Part shown: piece after piece, positions 1-10,205 of the stretch
How positions within the stretch are numbered: the first letter of the stretch is position 1
How the letters are laid out: each line of letters starts with the position of its first letter
From: a virus
Lineage: Duplodnaviria; Heunggongvirae; Uroviricota; Caudoviricetes
DNA length: 10,205 bases
IMG/VR virus record: IMGVR_UViG_2531839454_000024
Reading direction: 5' to 3' (one strand)
Program-made: the position numbers and the translations under genes
The notes under the pieces: model-generated
What the model was told of the DNA's origin: nothing
Database searches by the model: none
The model's input: only the letters and a program-made list of their open reading frames with translations

Positions 1-933
1 ATGGACAACGACAAAATTGATCAACACAGCGACGAAATTGAAGTTGAGAGCGAAGAAAAAGAGCGCGGCAAAAAAATAGAAATAGATGAAGACCGACTCC
101 CCTCCCGGGCGATGGCAATTCATGAGCATATCCGCCAGGATGGTGAAAAAGAGCTGGAACGCGACGCAATGGCGCTACTGTGGTCAGCCATTGCGGCGGG
201 TCTGTCGATGGGCGCTTCGCTACTGGCAAAAGGGATATTTCATGTCGAACTGGAAGGAGTGCCAGGCAGCTTCTTACTGGAGAATCTCGGTTATACCTTT
301 GGTTTTATTATCGTCATTATGGCCCCCCAGCAATTATTTACCGAAAACACCGTGACTGCGGTACTACCCGTCATGCAAAAACCGACAATGAGCAACGTCG
401 GCTTACTTATGCGATTATGGGGCGTCGTGCTGCTGGGTAATATTCTCGGGACAGGTATTGCTGCATGGGCATTTGAATATATGCCTATCTTCAATGAAGA
501 AACTCGCGATGCATTTGTCAAAATCGGCATGGATGTGATGAAGAACACCCCCAGCGAGATGTTTGCCAACGCGATCATTTCCGGCTGGCTGATCGCCACT
601 ATGGTTTGGATGTTTCCTGCTGCGGGTGCGGCAAAGATTGTGGTGATTATATTGATGACCTGGCTTATTGCACTGGGTGACACCACCCACATCGTTGTCG
701 GTTCTGTTGAAATCCTCTATCTGGTGTTTAACGGCACGCTGCACTGGAGCGATTTCATCTGGCCCTTCGCACTACCTACTTTAGCGGGGAACATCTGCGG
801 CGGCACCTTTATCTTCGCGTTAATGAGTCATGCACAGATTCGTAACGACATGAGCAACAAGCGTAAAGCAGAAGCACGCCAAAAAGCAGAACGTGCGGAA
901 AACATTAAGAAAAATGATAAAAACCCAGCATAA
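1..933 (+). CDS. yfdC: Formate/nitrite transporter (FNT) family inner membrane protein, YfdC-like
   Basis: 310-aa ORF starting at window position 1. Charged N-terminal tail followed by multiple hydrophobic helices. I recognise the sequence as E. coli YfdC, the gene that precedes argW in the chromosome. GC-rich codon usage typical of the core genome. Confidence 0.88.
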   Translation: MDNDKIDQHSDEIEVESEEKERGKKIEIDEDRLPSRAMAIHEHIRQDGEKELERDAMALLWSAIAAGLSMGASLLAKGIFHVELEGVPGSFLLENLGYTFGFIIVIMAPQQLFTENTVTAVLPVMQKPTMSNVGLLMRLWGVVLLGNILGTGIAAWAFEYMPIFNEETRDAFVKIGMDVMKNTPSEMFANAIISGWLIATMVWMFPAAGAAKIVVIILMTWLIALGDTTHIVVGSVEILYLVFNGTLHWSDFIWPFALPTLAGNICGGTFIFALMSHAQIRNDMSNKRKAEARQKAERAENIKKNDKNPA

Positions 934-1008: not shown

Positions 1009-1083
1009 GTCCTCTTAGTTAAATGGATATAACGAGCCCCTCCTAAGGGCTAATTGCAGGTTCGATTCCTGCAGGGGACACTT
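1009..1083 (+). tRNA. argW: tRNA-Arg (anticodon CCU)
   Basis: Cloverleaf readable by eye: acceptor GTCCTCT / AGGGGAC, anticodon loop CTCCTAA with CCT anticodon, T-arm GCAGG-TTCGATT-CCTGC. Sequence ends ...GGGGACAC then TT (1082-1083) rather than CCA, so only the first C of the 3' CCA is encoded. Confidence 0.9.
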
Positions 1084-1256
1084 TAAAGACCTTTCTCTAC
1101 ATTTCACTTCATTACATAACCACTTAAAAAAAACAGTAAGTTATCACCGAATCGGCCTGATTTTCATTTCAGTTAATTTCATGACATTACAACCTCGTGA
1201 TGGTATAAGTGATGGTATTCCCCAGTTCGATATGCAGATACCATCAATTTACCAAA

Positions 1257-2543
1257 ATGAGTACAGATATGGCCATTAATGTGCTTTCCCCCAAACAGAT
1301 AGAAAACGCCAAGCCGAAGACCAATGATTACAAACTTACCGATGGAGGGAGTTTGTATCTACTGGTACGAAAGACTGGTGGAAAATACTGGCGTATGAAT
1401 TATCGTTTTGATGGAAAACAAGTGACATTGGCATTAGGGGTCTACCCAGATGTCTCACTTGCAACAGCGCGGAAACGGCGTGATGAAGCCAGGCAACTAC
1501 TAGCCGATGGCCGTGATCCTCGCGAAGCAAAGAAACCCAAAAAGGAAGACCCAATTTCCCCCACGTTCGAGAGTGTTGCCAGAGAGTGGCATAGTGGAAC
1601 GATGGGGCATCCTGAGTGGAAAGAGATCACCCGTAAAAAAATTCTCCGAGAAATGGAAAACCACCTCTTTCCTGCCATCGGTTCAAAGCCTATCGATACG
1701 CTCAAAACCCGTGACTTGATGCCGATGCTGGTTGAGATGACTGAGAAAGGAATTGGTGCCACAACGAGCCGGGTAAAAACCACTATGACGAGCATCTTCC
1801 GTTATGCCGTGCAACGTGGAATTGTCGATTACAACCCTGCCCACGATCTAAAAGGTGCAATTACGGCCCCCAAAGTACGACATCGCCCCGCACTACCTCT
1901 CGAACGTTTACCTGAACTGTTAGCGAAAACGAGAAGTTACACGGGAAGACCATTGACTCGCCTAGCAGTTCTCTTTTCCCTGCACACTTTTGTGCGATCC
2001 AGCGAACTACGACATGCCAGATGGGAGGAGATCGACATTGAAAATGGGCTATGGACGATACCAGGACAACGTGAAGAGATCGCAGGGGTTAAATTCTCAG
2101 ATCGGGGTGCAAAGATGGGGGCTGCTCATTATGTCCCGCTATCTAGTCAGGCTATCGGGGTACTGGAGGATATAAGGAAAATCAGTGGTGAATATCTGCT
2201 GGTTTTCCCCGGTGACAGCAACCCATATAAACCGATGAGCGAAAACACAGTTAATAAAGCACTGCGAACGATGGGTTACGACACTCAAACTGATGTATGC
2301 TTACATGGGTTCAGGGCGATGGCCTGCTCTGCACTGACCGAATCAGGACTCTGGTCACGCGATGCAGTTGAACGGCAGATGAGTCACCAAGAAAGAAACG
2401 AAGTGCGGGCAGCATATGTGCATCTTGCGCAGCACATGCAGGAACGCCGCAGAATGATGCAATGGTGGTCTAATTATCTGGAACTAAATAAGGACGAATT
2501 TCATGCTCCTTATGACTTATCAGGTATTAACATTATCAATTAA
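1257..2543 (+). CDS. int: P4-type tyrosine integrase (site-specific recombinase, tRNA-targeting)
   Basis: N-terminal arm-binding-type motif (KQIENAKPK...YKLTDGGSLYLLV...KYWRMNYRF...TLALGVYPDVSLATARKRRDEAR) typical of P4 Int. C-terminal catalytic region has HGFRAMA and a terminal AAYVHL tyrosine. Start is uncertain: ATG 1257 or ATG 1269; the 1209 GTG extension in the ORF track is unlikely. Sits directly 3' of a tRNA gene, as is usual for this family. Confidence 0.9.
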   Translation: MSTDMAINVLSPKQIENAKPKTNDYKLTDGGSLYLLVRKTGGKYWRMNYRFDGKQVTLALGVYPDVSLATARKRRDEARQLLADGRDPREAKKPKKEDPISPTFESVAREWHSGTMGHPEWKEITRKKILREMENHLFPAIGSKPIDTLKTRDLMPMLVEMTEKGIGATTSRVKTTMTSIFRYAVQRGIVDYNPAHDLKGAITAPKVRHRPALPLERLPELLAKTRSYTGRPLTRLAVLFSLHTFVRSSELRHARWEEIDIENGLWTIPGQREEIAGVKFSDRGAKMGAAHYVPLSSQAIGVLEDIRKISGEYLLVFPGDSNPYKPMSENTVNKALRTMGYDTQTDVCLHGFRAMACSALTESGLWSRDAVERQMSHQERNEVRAAYVHLAQHMQERRRMMQWWSNYLELNKDEFHAPYDLSGINIIN

Positions 2544-2573: not shown

Positions 2574-3455
2574 ATGCAGCATTCAACAGAGAATGAAACT
2601 ATATTCTTAGGAAATCTATGGATTGACAAAAAAATACCACCATTAGAATATTGTTCATTTGAACGCGCTTCAAGACTATTAGAATGCGAGATTGATGATT
2701 TATTACACCTATACGAAATAGGCGCTTTTAATATCGCATTCAAGGCGGATGGACTTGCAGTTAGATTTAATGTTAATTTCCTCAATAAAAATCAGAAAGT
2801 GGAAATTGACTTAATTCATCCCGTATTAACTAATCAATCACTAGAGATGGAATTTTCAACAATATGGTATGACCTTAAAGATGATTCCTTTGAACATTTT
2901 GAAAATGGGCTTCAAATTATAGGATTTGCCTGTGGTATTTGGTACGCCGATGATATGATAAGTGACATAAAAAATGGATTAGCTATAGATCCAGATTATG
3001 AATTCAGGCTTAAACCGGTAAAAATACGAGATAATGTTTTGATGGCAACGGCCTCATATGAAGGAAATAAGGTCATTGATATTCCATTTGAAGATCTTCT
3101 TATCATGCGAAGAGATTTAGAGTTAATATGGAAATCAGTAAAAACTGGAATTCCTATGCCAAGTTTACTTACGAAAAGAATTTCATCTGAACCTAAAATC
3201 CCCAAGCGATTAAATAACACTGCTGAGCATCATGCAAAAAATAGGGAGGGGTTATTAAATGCAGCCATATATATATTAGCAAAATACCCAAGCGAATGTC
3301 GTGGTGAAAGAAAAGAGATAAGTCCTGAAAAGTGGACTAACGCCATAATTAAACATTTAGGAGAGCTACCTCCAATATTTATCACTAATGAACAAGAAAT
3401 CTTAAGAAAATTACGATTAGCGGTTAATCATGCGGGATTAAAACAAAAGGGGTAG
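2574..3455 (+). CDS. Hypothetical protein, 293 aa, no family recognised; AT-rich orphan cargo gene
   Basis: Clean ORF with a strong SD 5 nt upstream. Markedly lower G+C than its neighbours (about one third by hand count of four 60-nt samples). No TM helices and no motif I can assign. Confidence 0.8.
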   Translation: MQHSTENETIFLGNLWIDKKIPPLEYCSFERASRLLECEIDDLLHLYEIGAFNIAFKADGLAVRFNVNFLNKNQKVEIDLIHPVLTNQSLEMEFSTIWYDLKDDSFEHFENGLQIIGFACGIWYADDMISDIKNGLAIDPDYEFRLKPVKIRDNVLMATASYEGNKVIDIPFEDLLIMRRDLELIWKSVKTGIPMPSLLTKRISSEPKIPKRLNNTAEHHAKNREGLLNAAIYILAKYPSECRGERKEISPEKWTNAIIKHLGELPPIFITNEQEILRKLRLAVNHAGLKQKG

Positions 3456-3521
3456 ACTGAAACAATCTACAGGTAGAGTTGATTACACTACCTTCACAGC
3501 ATTTTGATATCCCCATAGTAT

Positions 3522-3550
3522 CTGCCGTGTTCATTACATAACACGGCAGG
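3522..3550 (+). promoter_or_regulatory. Perfect 10-bp inverted repeat (CTGCCGTGTT-9 nt-AACACGGCAG) just upstream of alpA
   Basis: Arms 3522-3531 and 3541-3550 are exact reverse complements. The loop is CATTACATA. The right arm abuts the weak alpA SD. Could be a terminator for the upstream orphan gene (no U-tract) or an operator or RBS-sequestering hairpin. Confidence 0.35.
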
Positions 3551-3557
3551 TAATTTC

Positions 3558-3773
3558 ATGACATTAAAAACTTATCCTATCACTGGACATGCCCGCCCAC
3601 GAGCTACTGCTGACTTTTTGCAAATAAGTACGGTTACTCTCTGGCGCTGGGAAAAGAACAATCCTGAATTTCCCAAATCTATACGCATTTCAAAACGGGT
3701 ATCTGTTTACGATGCACAAGAAATTAGGCAGTGGGTTAAAGCTCAATCAGCAGGATTGGAGGAAGTAGTGTAA
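3558..3773 (+). CDS. alpA: AlpA-family phage transcriptional regulator (excisionase-like HTH)
   Basis: 71-aa protein with the Phage_AlpA-type pattern FLQISTVTLWRWEKNNPEFPKSIRIS...VYDAQEIRQWV. Located downstream of a P4-type int, as in CP4-57-type islands. Confidence 0.85.
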   Translation: MTLKTYPITGHARPRATADFLQISTVTLWRWEKNNPEFPKSIRISKRVSVYDAQEIRQWVKAQSAGLEEVV

Positions 3774-3791
3774 TGACAATATTAACAAAGC

Positions 3792-3813
3792 TGGGGAGAA
3801 AAAAGCCTCCCCA
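3792..3813. terminator. Hairpin between convergent alpA and RHH genes (possible bidirectional terminator)
   Basis: Stem TGGGGAG 3792-3798 / CTCCCCA 3807-3813 with an A-rich 8-nt loop. Lies between the alpA stop (3773) and the stop of the minus-strand ORF (3823). Confidence 0.35.
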
Positions 3814-3822
3814 ACGTATTAA

Positions 3823-4017
3823 TCAATTCTTTGGTTCTAAACCTCGGCTTTGTAACTCTTTGCGTAGAATGCGCTTGATCCAAGCCGCTAGCGATTCATC
3901 GCCATCCTGCTGTTGTGCTTGTTCCATCAGTTCACGCAGTTCAGGGTCAAGTCGGAACTGGAATGGCGGATTCCCACGTCTTTCATTTTTGTGTGTTGAC
4001 ACGTCAATTACACCCAT
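3823..4017 (-). CDS. Small ribbon-helix-helix (Arc/CopG-like) DNA-binding protein, putative satellite repressor
   Basis: 64-aa ORF. PPFQFRLDPELRELMEQ...SLAAWIKRILRKEL fits a beta-strand plus two-helix RHH pattern. Divergent from the downstream replication operon. No clear SD, so the start is uncertain. Confidence 0.55.
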   Translation of the reverse strand: MGVIDVSTHKNERRGNPPFQFRLDPELRELMEQAQQQDGDESLAAWIKRILRKELQSRGLEPKN

Positions 4018-4051
4018 TGTAATGTATTTATGTGTAATGACACATTACACA
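3996..4051 (+). promoter_or_regulatory. Candidate promoter and operator for the replication operon
   Basis: TTGACA 3996-4001, 16-bp spacer, TGTAAT 4018-4023. Directly downstream is a perfect palindrome TGTGTAATG-ACA-CATTACACA (arms 4031-4039 and 4043-4051). Confidence 0.4.
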
Positions 4052-4133
4052 CAGAAAAACAAAATAGCAACGCCCCGGAGTGTTTGCAGCAGCACCGAGG
4101 CGTCTGACCAGCACGTTATATGAGGTAACGAAG

Positions 4134-4310
4134 ATGGCTAAACAGAAGTGTACCTGGTTATTTGCGGCGATCAACCGCAGTCAACGTAATGCCCGTCCGG
4201 TGATGTTAAGGATCACCGCAGATAACGAACGATCAGCGCGGCGCAGACTTGCCCCGGACTATGTACTGAGCTTTGCCGGGCGCATTCCCTGCGGAGGGGA
4301 ACATGCGTAA
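4134..4310 (+). CDS. Icd-like small protein (host cell division inhibitor Icd-like family), tentative
   Basis: 58 aa from ATG 4134 with SD GAGG 4122-4125. The sequence KCTWLFAAINRS...PVMLRITADNERSARRRLAPDYVLSFAGRIP matches my recollection of the Icd-like family common in P4-like elements. The GTG 4080 extension was rejected. Confidence 0.5.
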   Translation: MAKQKCTWLFAAINRSQRNARPVMLRITADNERSARRRLAPDYVLSFAGRIPCGGEHA

Positions 4311-4662
4311 TTATCCGCACCCCGGCGAACGCTGGCAGCATGAACGTGGCTGGACGGTCACGATTATCCGATTAATAGAAGCCTCGCCCTCTGTGGCGCT
4401 GGTTAATCCTGAATTCAGCTGTGAAGTGCTGATACGTCATGACAGCGACAACCAGCTATCTTCCTGCCCTCTGGCATGGTTTGAACAGCGGTATACGCGC
4501 CTGTTTGATGTACCGCTCTTTAAGCCTGCACCAGCTCCTGCAGGCGGTAGTGGTTCCGGCCCGCTGACACTGCATCCGTCTGTGCTATTTATCCGCTGGC
4601 GGGAGCGTAGCATATGGCGTTCTGCTGAGCCTGACGACGGTCACTATTCAAAGTTTCTCTGA
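4303..4662 (+). CDS. Hypothetical protein (possibly Ash-family-like), 119 aa
   Basis: ATG 4303 overlaps the stop of the Icd-like gene by 8 nt, with SD GGAGGGGA upstream. Coding-like composition. Family assignment is only from memory of typical P4-like annotations. Confidence 0.55.
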   Translation: MRNYPHPGERWQHERGWTVTIIRLIEASPSVALVNPEFSCEVLIRHDSDNQLSSCPLAWFEQRYTRLFDVPLFKPAPAPAGGSGSGPLTLHPSVLFIRWRERSIWRSAEPDDGHYSKFL

Positions 4663-4693
4663 CAAAATACCGCTGAAAACGGAGTAATCCACG

Positions 4694-4978
4694 ATGAATA
4701 TTTCAAACGGGCACAACGGTGCTCAGGGCCACACTTTGCCTGAAAAACACAATACCGGTGCTTTTGCCTATGGGTTGTCAGAGGACAGTTTCGGAAAGCT
4801 GACCCGCGCAAAAAATGCCTGCGACATGCTCCAGCTTCTCTTTTCTGAATACCCGTCTCAGGCCGGAGCACTGGACGCTGGCTGTGCGCATGGTGTCGCC
4901 GCGCTGATGGAGTACCTGCTGGCAGATTTGACGGATATTGCACACAGCTGCGCACTGATTGAAGGAGGTGCCAGATGA
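4694..4978 (+). CDS. Hypothetical protein, 94 aa
   Basis: ATG 4694 preceded by GGAG (4681-4684). Its stop overlaps the next start (ATGA at 4975-4978). Confidence 0.6.
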   Translation: MNISNGHNGAQGHTLPEKHNTGAFAYGLSEDSFGKLTRAKNACDMLQLLFSEYPSQAGALDAGCAHGVAALMEYLLADLTDIAHSCALIEGGAR

Positions 4979-5358
4979 ACCAGCCGCAGGTTTCCATTTT
5001 CCCGGCAGAAATGACCACCGCGCTTTACCGGCGGGCTATTGCTTCAGCATGGCGGCAGAAAATGCTGAACGAAACTGGTAGTGATCAGTATGGTCCGCAC
5101 AGCCTGACGGTGGAGCGTATTGAAATGGCCATTGCGCTGCATATCGAGTGCGTACTGATTAACGAGTACGGCGAAGTGCAGGGCGCCGCTGCCGCGCTGG
5201 CACTGCTGACTGACATGCTGGAGCCATCACTGCTGACCGCGCCGCCGGTACTGACCGCGCGCGGCTGTGAAGTGATGGCGGAGATGTACCGCACGCTTCC
5301 GGCGGCCTTTGATGACTTCTGCAGTACCGGTGTGACGTTGTATGAGGGGGAAGTATGA
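4975..5358 (+). CDS. Hypothetical protein, 127 aa
   Basis: Translationally coupled on both sides (ATGA overlaps at 4975-4978 and 5355-5358). SD-like GAAGGAGG upstream. Confidence 0.6.
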   Translation: MNQPQVSIFPAEMTTALYRRAIASAWRQKMLNETGSDQYGPHSLTVERIEMAIALHIECVLINEYGEVQGAAAALALLTDMLEPSLLTAPPVLTARGCEVMAEMYRTLPAAFDDFCSTGVTLYEGEV

Positions 5359-8027
5359 CAATACAGACGGTTACGCAGATTTCAGCCGCCGCACGGGGGA
5401 AATGGCCCGTTATTCTGCAGATGCTGCGTATTGATGTACCTGAAAACGGCAGGCACGGCCCCTGCCCGAAATGTGGGGGCAAGGATCGTTTTCGCCTTGA
5501 TGACCTTGACGGGCGCGGGACGTGGATCTGCAGCCAGTGTGGCAATGGTGACGGTCTGGATCTGGTTAAGCTCGTAACCGGTTACAGCGTCAGAAAGGCT
5601 GCGCAGGAGGTGGCGCAGGTGCTTAATGTGCCGGATGTGCAGGAACTGCCTGTTAAGCCTGCCAGACAAAAAGCCCCTAAACGCGACATGGGTCTTACCG
5701 TGGCGGCGCTGATGAAAGAGAGCCACACGGGAGAAAGCGCCTATCTGACAGGAAAAGGGTTCGCCGGATACCCGGCCTCTCTGACCGGAAGCGTGCAGCA
5801 TATCAGCGGTAAGGATTTTCCTGCCGGTTCCCTGCTGTTACCACTCACGACCAACACCGGAGCCGTGACCGGTGCACAGCTTATCGCCCCGACGGGTGAA
5901 AAAAGCATACTGCCCGGCAGCACGATGAAAGGCGCGTTTGTGTCGCTCAGCCCGTTACCGTCTGAACCACCGGTACAGGTGGTGATTACCGAAGGTTACG
6001 CTACGGCGCTGACGGTAAGCCAGCTCACTGCCGGATGCGTAGTGGCTGCCATATCTGCGGGCAACCTGCCCAATGTGGCGCAGTCGCTGCGGGCACGCTG
6101 GCCTGAGGTAAAAATTATCATCGCCGGTGATAACGATTTTCAGGACGGGGGGGAGAATCCCGGCAGAGCCTTTGCTGAACGGGCGGCAAAAGCTGTTGGC
6201 GGCTGGATGACGCTGCCACCAGGAGAGATTAAGGCTGACTGGAATGACTTTCATCGGGAGCACGGTATTACCCGTGCCCGTGAAGCCTTTCGCAACGGTC
6301 TGGTACTGTGCGGGGAAGGCCGCACGCAACTGCCGCACGGGTTCCGTCTTACCCAGGAATATCTCTGGTATGAAAAGCAGGTACAGCGCAACGGTGAGAC
6401 GGAGATCCAGAACGTCAAAATATGCAGCCCGCTGCGCGTGACGGCAATCACCTGCGATGCCGATGGCGGTAACTTCGGACGACTGCTGGAATGGGAAGAT
6501 ACGTGGGGTGAGTGTCGCCGCTGGGCGATGCCGATGGAAATGCTGAGCGGCAGTGGTGAGGAACTGCGCCGGGTACTGCTGGTTAACGGGCTGTCTTATA
6601 TCAGCACCACCGGTGAGGCACGCGCACGCCTGATGGAATATATCTCACTGTGTAAACCGGAACGCCGCGTGACCTGCGTCAGTCGTACTGGCTGGCATGG
6701 TCAGGTTTACGTCCTGCAGGATGAGGTCAGCGGTGAAGGTGCAGAGGGTGTCATTCTCCAGACCACTTCCGTGCAGGGGCGTGATTTCCGCGTGTCGGGC
6801 ACAACAGAGGAATGGCGGGAGCATGTATCCCGCTACTGTACCGGCAACTCCCGCGTGGCATTTGCTGTCAGCCTGGCCTTTGCTGCACCACTGTTACGGC
6901 TGGTTGGTATGGACGGCGGCGGCTACCACCTAAAAGGGGAATCGACAGACGGTAAGACCACCACCATGAAAGCGGCAACCTCCGTCTGCGGCGGGCCTGA
7001 CTACTGGCAGACATGGCGGGCCACCGGCAACGCGCTGGAGGGATGCGCCAGCCGCCGCAACGATGCCGCCATGATGCTTGATGAGATCCGGGAAGTTGAC
7101 GGACGCGAGGCAGGCAATATCGCCTACATGCTGGCAAACGGTCAGGGCAAGGGCCGTGCCGGTACGGACGGTGAGCTGCGTACCCGTAAGCAGTGGCGCC
7201 TGTTGTTCTTTTCAACTGGCGAGTTGTCTCTGACCGAACATGCGGCAAAGGCCGGTGAGCGTACTTTTGCCGGGATGGAAGTCAGGATGATCCAGATCCC
7301 AAGCGATTCCGGGAAGTTTGGCGTTTTTGAGGAGCTGCACGGCTTCGACAGCGGCAAGGCTCTGGCAGAGCATCTTGAATGGGCCACGTCCTGCTACTAC
7401 GGTTCGCCGTTCCGGGAGTGGCTGAAAGCACTGACCGCTGATCTTAACGGACTAACGGCACAGGCAAAATCGCTGATGAAGGAATATGCTGCCGCCCTGA
7501 CTCCTAAAGATGCAGGCAATCAGGTGGGCCGGGCTGTGAACCGCTTTGCACTGGTGGCGATGGCAGGTGAACTGGCAACCCGTCTGGGTATCACCGGCTG
7601 GCCTGAGGGTGAAGCACTGCGGGCAACCCGCGTCTGCCTGAACGCATGGCTGAAAGATCGCGGGCACACCGCCAATCAGGAAGATATCGCCGCACTGGAG
7701 CAGGTTCGCAGTTTCTTTACCGCGAATCAGTACAGCCGCTTTGCAGACTGGTATGACGAGCGCAACCGCCCCGGCAATATGGTGGGCTGGCGCAGGGTGG
7801 AGAAAGGCAGTACCGCGCAGGGCACGGAAGCTGTCACTACGTTCTATGTCATGCCGTCCGGCTGGAAAGAAATCTGCAGGGGATTTGACCCGCGTAAGGT
7901 GGCGCGTCTGTGCGCAGATCGTGGATACCTGCTGCCCTCCACTGATGGCAAACTCCAGACAACCATTCGCCCGCCAGAGATGAATCCCCGCAGGCTCTAT
8001 GTCTTCAACAGCGAGGTGCCGGGTTAA
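5355..8027 (+). CDS. Primase-helicase, P4 alpha-like (zinc-ribbon + TOPRIM + P-loop NTPase, DUF927-type)
   Basis: 890 aa. N-terminal CPKCGG...CSQCG zinc ribbon; TOPRIM-like ITEGYATALTV and IIAGDND; Walker A GESTDGKTT and Walker B-like MMLDEI. Iteron array lies immediately downstream. Confidence 0.9.
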   Translation: MTIQTVTQISAAARGKWPVILQMLRIDVPENGRHGPCPKCGGKDRFRLDDLDGRGTWICSQCGNGDGLDLVKLVTGYSVRKAAQEVAQVLNVPDVQELPVKPARQKAPKRDMGLTVAALMKESHTGESAYLTGKGFAGYPASLTGSVQHISGKDFPAGSLLLPLTTNTGAVTGAQLIAPTGEKSILPGSTMKGAFVSLSPLPSEPPVQVVITEGYATALTVSQLTAGCVVAAISAGNLPNVAQSLRARWPEVKIIIAGDNDFQDGGENPGRAFAERAAKAVGGWMTLPPGEIKADWNDFHREHGITRAREAFRNGLVLCGEGRTQLPHGFRLTQEYLWYEKQVQRNGETEIQNVKICSPLRVTAITCDADGGNFGRLLEWEDTWGECRRWAMPMEMLSGSGEELRRVLLVNGLSYISTTGEARARLMEYISLCKPERRVTCVSRTGWHGQVYVLQDEVSGEGAEGVILQTTSVQGRDFRVSGTTEEWREHVSRYCTGNSRVAFAVSLAFAAPLLRLVGMDGGGYHLKGESTDGKTTTMKAATSVCGGPDYWQTWRATGNALEGCASRRNDAAMMLDEIREVDGREAGNIAYMLANGQGKGRAGTDGELRTRKQWRLLFFSTGELSLTEHAAKAGERTFAGMEVRMIQIPSDSGKFGVFEELHGFDSGKALAEHLEWATSCYYGSPFREWLKALTADLNGLTAQAKSLMKEYAAALTPKDAGNQVGRAVNRFALVAMAGELATRLGITGWPEGEALRATRVCLNAWLKDRGHTANQEDIAALEQVRSFFTANQYSRFADWYDERNRPGNMVGWRRVEKGSTAQGTEAVTTFYVMPSGWKEICRGFDPRKVARLCADRGYLLPSTDGKLQTTIRPPEMNPRRLYVFNSEVPG

Positions 8028-9848: not shown

Positions 9849-10205
9849 GTAAGCGACTCGTCAGAACCGTATTGATATTTACTGAGAGCTCAGATCAACT
9901 TTCCAGGGCAACAGATCGCGTACCCGGTTTGCCGGCCAATCCTGGATATGTTCAATGACGTAACGCAGCCACTTTTCTGGCTCCACATTGTTCAGACGGC
10001 ATGTGCCGATCAGCGAGTACAACACCGCCGCATGTTCACCACCGCTGTCGGAACCCGCGAACATCCAGTTTTTCCGGCCTACGGCCACTCCCCGTAAGGC
10101 GTTCTCTGCGATGTTGTTGTCGATTTCCACCCAGCCATTACTGCAGTACACGTTCAGTGCATCCCACTGTTTCAGCAGGTATGCGAACGCTTTTGCCGTA
10201 TCTGA
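9849..10205 (-). mobile_element. IS66-family insertion sequence, right-hand end only (continues past window edge)
   Basis: Terminus begins GTAAGCG at 9849-9855, typical of IS66-family ends. Carries the C-terminal part of an IS66-type transposase on the minus strand. Confidence 0.8.
9879..10205 (-). CDS. IS66-family transposase (TnpC), C-terminal fragment, 5' end outside window
   Basis: Minus-strand frame is open to the window edge. Translation ...AFAYLLKQWDALNVYCSNGWVEIDNNIAENALRGVAVGRKNWMFAGSDSGGEHAAVLYSLIGTCRLNNVEPEKWLRYVIEHIQDW... is the conserved IS66 transposase C-terminus. Stop TAA at 9879-9881. Confidence 0.85.
   Translation of the reverse strand, partial: SDTAKAFAYLLKQWDALNVYCSNGWVEIDNNIAENALRGVAVGRKNWMFAGSDSGGEHAAVLYSLIGTCRLNNVEPEKWLRYVIEHIQDWPANRVRDLLPWKVDLSSQ

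Follow-up and report, generated by a model that had tools for sequence, protein, structure and literature searches.

Which functions are encoded by the four small genes that stand immediately ahead of the primase in IMG/VR record IMGVR_UViG_2531839454_000024? The record, 10,205 nucleotides (nt) of caudoviricete DNA that are referred to as the window at their full length, carries there open reading frames (ORFs) of 58, 119, 94 and 127 amino acids (aa), named icd/kil, ORF119, ORF94 and ORF127 in the following. A preliminary description, made from the letters alone, had called the first Icd-like and seen no motif in the other three. Comparison with the satellite phage P4 (reference NC_001609) makes it likely that in this block a P4-like satellite carries its early ('left') operon, built from the same families (kil, orf151, epsilon, cnr, alpha) in a different order and behind a different regulatory head. 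All coordinates are given in Table 1.

Assignment of icd/kil, ORF127 and ORF119

The Icd-like call was right: the 58-aa protein scores 84 bits against NCBIfam NF033153 (cutoff 25, E 5.5e-24) and is 53% identical over 47 aa to the 65-aa Kil protein of P4 (BLASTP E 4e-16; P4 is also found with tblastn), and the gene is thus shown to belong to the Kil/Icd family as a homologue of P4 Kil. As Forti et al. (1999) are summarized in PMC10111431, P4 kil is the first gene translated after PLE and is nested in eta, its overexpression is lethal to cells, and translation of eta/kil blocks termination. The window gene has no eta extension, the room upstream sufficing for at most 18 codons.

The 127-aa protein, for which no motif had been recognized, does match a Pfam family, DUF5375 (PF17345), with E 2.4e-13 and 50.4 bits against a gathering score of 30. 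The founding member of this family is P4 ORF106 (210.9 bits against PF17345), to which ORF127 is 40% identical (E 6e-17). The gene lies directly 5' of the primase, overlapping its start at 5355, and its counterparts hold the same position in P4 and in the related satellites L052 and L055. These matches show ORF127 to be the DUF5375/ORF106 (Cnr) gene of the window. We take ORF106 to be cnr, a negative regulator of P4 replication acting through alpha, under which name it has reportedly been described. According to Moura de Sousa et al. (2021), 90% of P4-like elements have a cnr family located between 'epsilon' and alpha, which fits ORF127 as cnr. The window primase is 27% identical to P4 alpha; the N-terminal halves are similar (Zn_Ribbon_Prim, Toprim_3), whereas the C-terminal half is DUF927 in the window and D5_N/DUF5906/Pox_D5 in alpha. 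The Cnr homologue is kept directly 5' of the primase despite this change.

ORF119 belongs to phrog_30862 (PHROG, E 2e-77) and aligns with P4 ORF151, whose family is phrog_10748, from residue 1 onwards (BLASTP E 6e-4; hhalign 52.6%, E 1.4e-4). Its common ground with the ORF151 family is confined to the N-terminal ~75 aa and the C-terminal tail, where ORF119 and P4 ORF151 share the pattern EPD..(H/S)Y(S/R)(K/N)(F/Y)L. In L055, which has the same layout, the ORF119 slot is filled by a protein of 151 aa; it shares 40% identity with P4 ORF151 (E 3e-41), and the N-terminus of ORF119 aligns with it as well (E 2e-5). On account of the direct match and of this bridge in the same slot, ORF119 is shown to be an ORF151-family gene, its product being a shortened member. 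A BLASTP comparison of ORF119 with P4 epsilon gave no match. An assignment to DUF4222 was rejected, the Pfam match being too weak (E 0.01 over 21 residues), and an AlphaFold2 model with a predicted local distance difference test score (pLDDT) of 44.6 was too poor for use.

Architecture of the operon

The ORF boundaries of the preliminary description are correct, as are the three overlaps given there: ATGCGTAA at 4303-4310 (8 nt) and ATGA at both 4975-4978 and 5355-5358. The four small ORFs had further been described as one consecutive, coupled chain, which does not apply throughout: ORF119 runs to 4662 and ORF94 begins only at 4694, and the 31-nt gap between them (4663-4693) holds a separate GGAG for ORF94, so that two coupled groups result, one of icd and ORF119, the other of ORF94, ORF127 and the primase. 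A small hairpin, CCGCTGAAAACGG (4670-4682), adjoins this GGAG. A Shine-Dalgarno (SD)-like purine run is found 5-9 nt 5' of each start.

The 8-nt overlap after icd recurs in L052 and L055, and in P4 it is found at kil/epsilon and at epsilon/orf151. Relatives also conserve the overlap of the ORF94-type gene with cnr (4-14 nt). That of cnr with the primase is not universal, gaps of 9-14 nt being found in L052, L055 and P4. The order of the five genes is kept in satellites L052-L055, which occupy another integration site and whose proteins are only 36-42% identical, and also in Yersinia, Serratia, Rouxiella, Pantoea and Citrobacter. Compared with relatives, the ratios of nonsynonymous to synonymous substitution rates (dN/dS) are 0.00-0.05 for icd, 0.16-0.20 for ORF119, 0.35-0.42 for ORF94, the highest among the four, and 0.23 for ORF127. 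The low ratios and the order kept in diverged relatives show that the small genes are real.

Regulatory head and leader RNA

Divergent to the operon lies a gene for a 64-aa ribbon-helix-helix (RHH) protein, found at the same place in RHH-type relatives; its product matches the Arc-like repressors of PHROG 228 (E 8.9e-6) and, below the cutoff, NCBIfam YlcI/YnfO (E 3e-4). The putative early promoter escaped a consensus scan because its -10 element matches at only three of six positions; the locus L001 keeps both the -35 and the TAnTGT -10. In addition to the operator-like palindrome, a further half-site, AATTACAC, is present at 4006-4013. Related elements with the same RHH layout have other palindromes at the position of this one, an indication that immunity specificities differ.

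The conserved two-hairpin leader before icd is the most novel item of the block. Hairpin 1 (4070-4103) is followed by the tail TCTGACCA (4103-4110) and a C/A-rich spacer, and hairpin 2 (4114-4130) encloses the SD sequence GAGG (4122-4125). The same layout, a hairpin, TCTNACCA, a C/A-rich spacer and a short SD hairpin, stands 5' of Icd-like genes in satellites and phages. In blastn searches, the leader was the only part of 3500-5400 to match phage records. The motif CAACGCC...GGCGTCTNACC has at least 151 instances in IMG/VR loci, 125 of these 151 having an Icd-like ORF 12-30 nt further on (97 distinct proteins); the instances are preceded by unrelated operator palindromes. Across 42 distinct leaders, 91.5% of cells are paired in the two hairpins, against at most 47% after sliding of the partner columns. 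Compensatory change is seen at six pairs (one of them with GC 20, CG 5, AU 4 and UA 2), and RNAalifold independently predicts the same two hairpins. More distant relatives keep the helix and the ACCA that follows it, with an entirely different stem sequence. The leader matches no family of Rfam 15. It was also considered as a C4 or isrK RNA and rejected as such: a C4/CI-type antisense RNA just 5' of icd was not found, there being no C4, isrK or c4-a1b1 match in the window at the gathering score or at E<=10, and the P4 control was positive at 74.9 bits. P4 and eta-type relatives have both C4 (CI RNA) and isrK, whereas RHH-type relatives, like the window, have neither. Weak Rfam matches in the window to traJ_5, GlmZ and fluoride (E 2-8) were taken as chance.

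By analogy only, we infer that the leader may control translation of icd and thereby read-through into the operon. It is quite conceivable that the Icd-like ORF itself mainly serves as a translated leader that gates elongation into the operon, a killing or division-blocking activity being secondary or absent. Precedents are P1 icd/ant and P4 kil/timm, translation of eta/kil preventing termination in the latter by the account in PMC10111431. Consistent with such a role, the leader and the start region are far better conserved than the Icd-like coding sequences, near-identical leaders precede the 97 distinct proteins, which range from 57 to 121 aa, and the 8-nt overlap is kept with whatever gene comes next. 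A pure spacer ORF would, however, need neither the strong purifying selection to which the Icd-like domain is subject (dN/dS 0.00-0.05) nor a NF033153 signature recognizable across families, and the same account attributes cell killing to overexpressed P4 Kil. The two roles are compatible and do not exclude each other.

ORF94 and P4 epsilon

ORF94 belongs to phrog_14861 (PHROG) and to a small family of 69 clusters at 90% identity, all from Enterobacterales; a search of 1.8 billion proteins, which had been clustered at 50% identity, gave 23 matching representatives at E<=0.001, a few of them very long proteins aligned over short stretches. A profile of this family aligns with a profile of the P4 epsilon family, all members of which are PF25738, at 87.1% in hhalign (E 4e-6, 55 columns). 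The observed score of 36.2 compares with 8.6-9.0 for reversed alignments, at most 18.3 for 60 column shuffles and 8.1 for an unrelated family. PF25738 is also the only recurrent, and the top, sub-threshold Pfam family, appearing for 3 of 19 ORF94-family members (best E 0.0076), and the motifs LS.E..-KL.RA and YL..D(L/I)..V have the same order and spacing in the two families.

A second line of evidence is positional. In eta-type satellites (L168-L176 and L185; for example L175:5741-5971), a family of ~78 aa occupies the slot of epsilon directly 3' of eta. This family is clearly homologous to that of ORF94 (hhalign 96.8%, E 2.7e-10; score 55.3 against at most 16.3 for shuffles) and is probably the 75-aa protein that occurs in 61% of P4-like elements and is absent from P4 (Moura de Sousa et al., 2021). 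Among 80 primase-anchored loci, the ORF94-type gene was found in 23 and canonical epsilon in 2, with no locus having both. P4 epsilon (E) is an anti-repressor that binds the C repressor of P2 (PMC2995052). Taking together the profile match, the sister family in the epsilon slot, the lack of co-occurrence, the dN/dS of ORF94, which exceeds those of the other three small genes, and the binding of P2 C by E, we read ORF94 as epsilon-type. Relatedness of the two families at the profile level is moderately supported, and ORF94 is most likely a diverged epsilon-type candidate anti-repressor, that is, a helper derepressor.

Several results weigh against this assignment. ORF94 has no match in Pfam (E<=10, PF25738 included) or NCBIfam and none to P4 epsilon in BLASTP. 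Against a single epsilon sequence, the ORF94-family profile reaches only 2.5% in hhalign, a comparison that is informative only when both partners are family profiles. Between the ~78-aa sister family and epsilon there is no significant match (score 12.9), the co-occurrence sample holds only the two canonical epsilon loci, and ORF94 follows the ORF151-like gene in the window, not kil or eta. As ORF94 and epsilon are both short helical hairpins, a chance profile similarity arises more easily, and as the window contains no helper phage or repressor, no target of ORF94 can be named. The AlphaFold2 model of ORF94 has a disordered N-terminus followed by a generic helical hairpin (pLDDT 71.5), for which Foldseek returned nothing at E<=0.001 from BFVD, and no solved relative of epsilon, of the ORF94 family or of Cnr turned up in sequence searches of the PDB. 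The lack of a direct, a Pfam or a significant sister-family match, the unspecific Foldseek result and the finding that each ORF94-type gene is coupled in translation to the replication gene that follows, be it cnr or, in L175, the primase itself, would suit a reading in which ORF94 is no relative of epsilon, the match stems from a composition common to two short helical hairpins, and the protein has another early function, for example in anti-defence or in partnership with Cnr or the primase. We regard this as rather unlikely: the observed hhalign score is twice that of the best of 60 shuffles and four times that of the reversed controls, the aligned motifs are kept in order and spacing in both families, and the equivalent position in eta-type satellites and the lack of co-occurrence with epsilon speak for the epsilon-type assignment.

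Proposed mechanism and remaining alternatives

For a P4-like early operon of this composition, the following scheme can be proposed. In the prophage state, the divergent RHH repressor would occupy the promoter palindrome and keep the operon off. Derepression, or read-through from alpA, would yield a transcript that starts with the two-hairpin leader, which would govern ribosome access to icd. Translation of the short Icd/Kil ORF would probably shield the transcript from Rho, as in P1 (c4-icd-ant) and P4 (cI-kil), and the 8-nt overlap would hand translation on to ORF119. ORF94 would start from its own SD sequence, with the ATGA overlaps coupling it to cnr and the primase. Of the products, Icd/Kil may be a peptide that is toxic or blocks division, and ORF94 may be an anti-repressor whose target is the immunity repressor of the lineage's helper, just as P4 epsilon (E) binds P2 C; Cnr may be a restraint on the primase/initiator.

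Beyond the points raised for ORF94, four others tell against this picture. UniProt still labels ORF106, here equated with cnr, uncharacterized. The DUF927 half of the primase is unlike that of P4 alpha, so that an interaction of Cnr with alpha may not carry over to the window. Both the leader's role and the step of Rho polarity are drawn from analogy only. Finally, delta is interrupted by an IS66-family element, and this copy of the satellite may be defective and perhaps no longer mobilizable.

The preliminary description had proposed the small proteins as candidates for helper manipulation or host takeover. This suits the Icd/Kil peptide and, through the profile link, ORF94 as a plausible helper derepressor; it does not suit ORF127. 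In its full form, in which all four would be such factors and toxic when expressed alone, we consider the proposal improbable: the Kil/Icd homology and the epsilon-like link of ORF94 favour it, whereas ORF127 is a homologue of the replication regulator ORF106 (Cnr), ORF119 belongs to a family without known function, in P4 as elsewhere, and none of the four proteins matches a defence or toxin family in PADLOC. Assignment to a replication accessory protein, which the preliminary description itself had named as evidence against its proposal, is what the DUF5375 match of ORF127 amounts to. A reading of the small ORFs as accessory cargo 5' of the primase, for example an inserted toxin-antitoxin or anti-phage module, is very improbable and largely refuted by synteny, for despite the defence hotspots of P4-like satellites (PMC9122126), none of the proteins has a PADLOC match, the genes are a syntenic core across genera, unlike the variable slot after int, and three of the four small genes have counterparts in the P4 core.

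Comparison with known systems

The left operon of P4 reads PLE/PLL - cI RNA - eta/kil - epsilon - orf151 - cnr (ORF106) - alpha. The window shares with it the Kil/Icd-like, ORF151, epsilon-related and DUF5375/Cnr families 5' of the primase, the 8-nt start/stop overlap after kil, the upstream alpA/vis gene in the same orientation (P4 orf88 also matches PF05930) and sid-psu-delta downstream. Unlike P4, it has no N-terminal eta extension (Ash, PF10554), no C4/CI RNA and no isrK/seqA element, and has instead the divergent RHH repressor, an operator and a structured leader of another kind. The order also differs (kil, epsilon, orf151 in P4; kil, ORF151-like, epsilon-like in the window), the epsilon counterpart is recognizable only at the profile level, and the C-terminal half of the primase is DUF927 in place of the D5_N/DUF5906/Pox_D5 domains of alpha. 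ORF94 resembles epsilon (PF25738, 'Derepression') in its length of about 95 aa, its presence in the same operon, the shared motif order and the 87% profile-profile match; it differs in remaining below every family threshold and in its neighbouring genes.

In the immI region of P1 and P7, a c4 antisense RNA precedes icd and ant, and translation of icd would license expression of the downstream anti-repressor. Here, too, translation of the operon begins with a short ORF of the Icd family. Unlike immI, the window has no C4 RNA or a1b1/a2b2 targets detectable with Rfam, its candidate anti-repressor is a helical protein of ~94 aa and not Ant, and control is apparently exerted by a protein repressor.

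The head of the window is found again in the early regions of enterobacterial phage-inducible chromosomal islands (PICIs) and capsid-forming PICIs (cf-PICIs), which read int - alpA - [YlcI/YnfO] - Icd - ... - primase. The window has the corresponding succession of RHH (YlcI/YnfO-like) gene, leader and Icd, and the same leader occurs in many int-alpA-primase elements of IMG/VR. Unlike the window, these PICI and cf-PICI elements have no ORF119, ORF94, Cnr or sid/psu/delta; the RHH-leader-Icd head is combined with P4-type genes only in the close lineage of the window. The pairing of Icd with YlcI/YnfO has been remarked upon before (PMC13612085).

Satellite context

The window is, judged by its tRNA-Arg gene and its gene content, a P4-like satellite prophage integrated at tRNA-Arg(CCT). 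Its layout is given in Table 1.

Table 1. Position and assignment of features along the window
Feature	Coordinates	Strand	Assignment or remark
Formate/nitrite-transporter gene	1-933		PF01226
tRNA-Arg(CCT)	1009-1081		integration site of the satellite
Tyrosine integrase gene (int)	1209-2543		
293-aa ORF	2574-3455		between int and alpA
alpA/vis-type regulator	3558-3773	+	Pfam PF05930, E 1.6e-7; counterpart of P4 orf88/vis
64-aa ribbon-helix-helix gene	3823-4017	-	putative immunity repressor; divergent to the operon
Putative early promoter	3996-4025	+	TTGACA-18 nt-TAATGT; read from the sequence
Operator-like 21-nt palindrome	4031-4051		TGTGTAATG-ACA-CATTACACA; at the predicted transcript start
Conserved structured leader	4068-4130	+	two hairpins
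icd/kil, 58 aa	4134-4310	+	Icd-like, P4 Kil homologue
ORF119, 119 aa	4303-4662	+	short P4 ORF151-family member
ORF94, 94 aa	4694-4978	+	epsilon-like candidate anti-repressor
ORF127, 127 aa	4975-5358	+	DUF5375, P4 ORF106 (Cnr) homologue
Primase-helicase	5355-8027	+	Zn_Ribbon_Prim + Toprim_3 + DUF927 (Pfam)
sid-like gene, psu, Ogr/Delta gene	downstream of primase		

The marker set of P4-like satellites was taken from Moura de Sousa et al. (2021); int, alpA, sid, psu and delta were all found (PF05930, PF07455, PF04606 and the sid-like family of PHROG). The literature markers for 'epsilon' (PF10554) and alpha (PF03288) were not detected in the window with Pfam, so that its lineage would be scored as lacking both genes. 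PF10554 ('Phage_ASH') matches the N-terminal part of P4 Eta (L002 8171-8584, minus strand). As real epsilon is PF25738, surveys with PF10554 score the eta/immunity head and not epsilon.

Positions 3500-5400 are present at >=80% coverage in 73 of 5426 complete Escherichia coli genomes, where RefSeq labels the products as Icd-like, three hypothetical proteins, DUF5375 and 'TOPRIM and DUF927'. The 293-aa ORF has no match in Pfam, NCBIfam, PHROG or PADLOC; in relatives, this slot between int and alpA is filled by unrelated genes, which suggests a variable cargo position there. The int-alpA RNA of Rfam (RF02996) was found in some elements that share the leader-Icd head (L007:12324-12391, L030:5205-5275) and was not detected in the window. 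The end of an IS66-family transposase (PF13817, PF03050) lies inside the delta gene at 9849-10205; since the match with intact relatives reaches only to 9848, the C-terminus of delta is foreign and the window lacks the satellite's right end.

Implications

Most of the block is ordinary, and what is new in it are two genes previously without assignment and an undescribed conserved RNA leader. P4 counterparts are thereby assigned to two proteins that are called 'hypothetical' on >670 to 1000 contigs in public databases. The results suggest that a large P4-like lineage, apparently without epsilon and alpha by the usual markers, carries diverged equivalents of both, and that two interchangeable immunity heads, one RNA-based and one protein-based, stand ahead of the same operon. 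Epsilon has served as a control knob for making transducing particles based on P4 (PMC12239096); candidate anti-repressors with new helper specificities could be of use there and in the induction of P2-like prophages.

A wider reading, which we put forward tentatively and as a whole consider doubtful, takes the ORF94 family and its ~78-aa sister as a widespread anti-repressor family of non-P4 satellites and the two-hairpin leader as a new class of cis-regulatory RNA. The two protein families would then be diversified relatives of epsilon, matched to the differing immunity repressors of their helpers. The leader, which ends in ACCA and precedes nearly all of these Icd-like genes, might be a substrate of RNase P type or of another host factor, and in the gating of icd translation and of read-through into the operon it would stand in for the C4/CI antisense RNA. 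If this is true, 'epsilon-less' satellites would still have an anti-repressor function.

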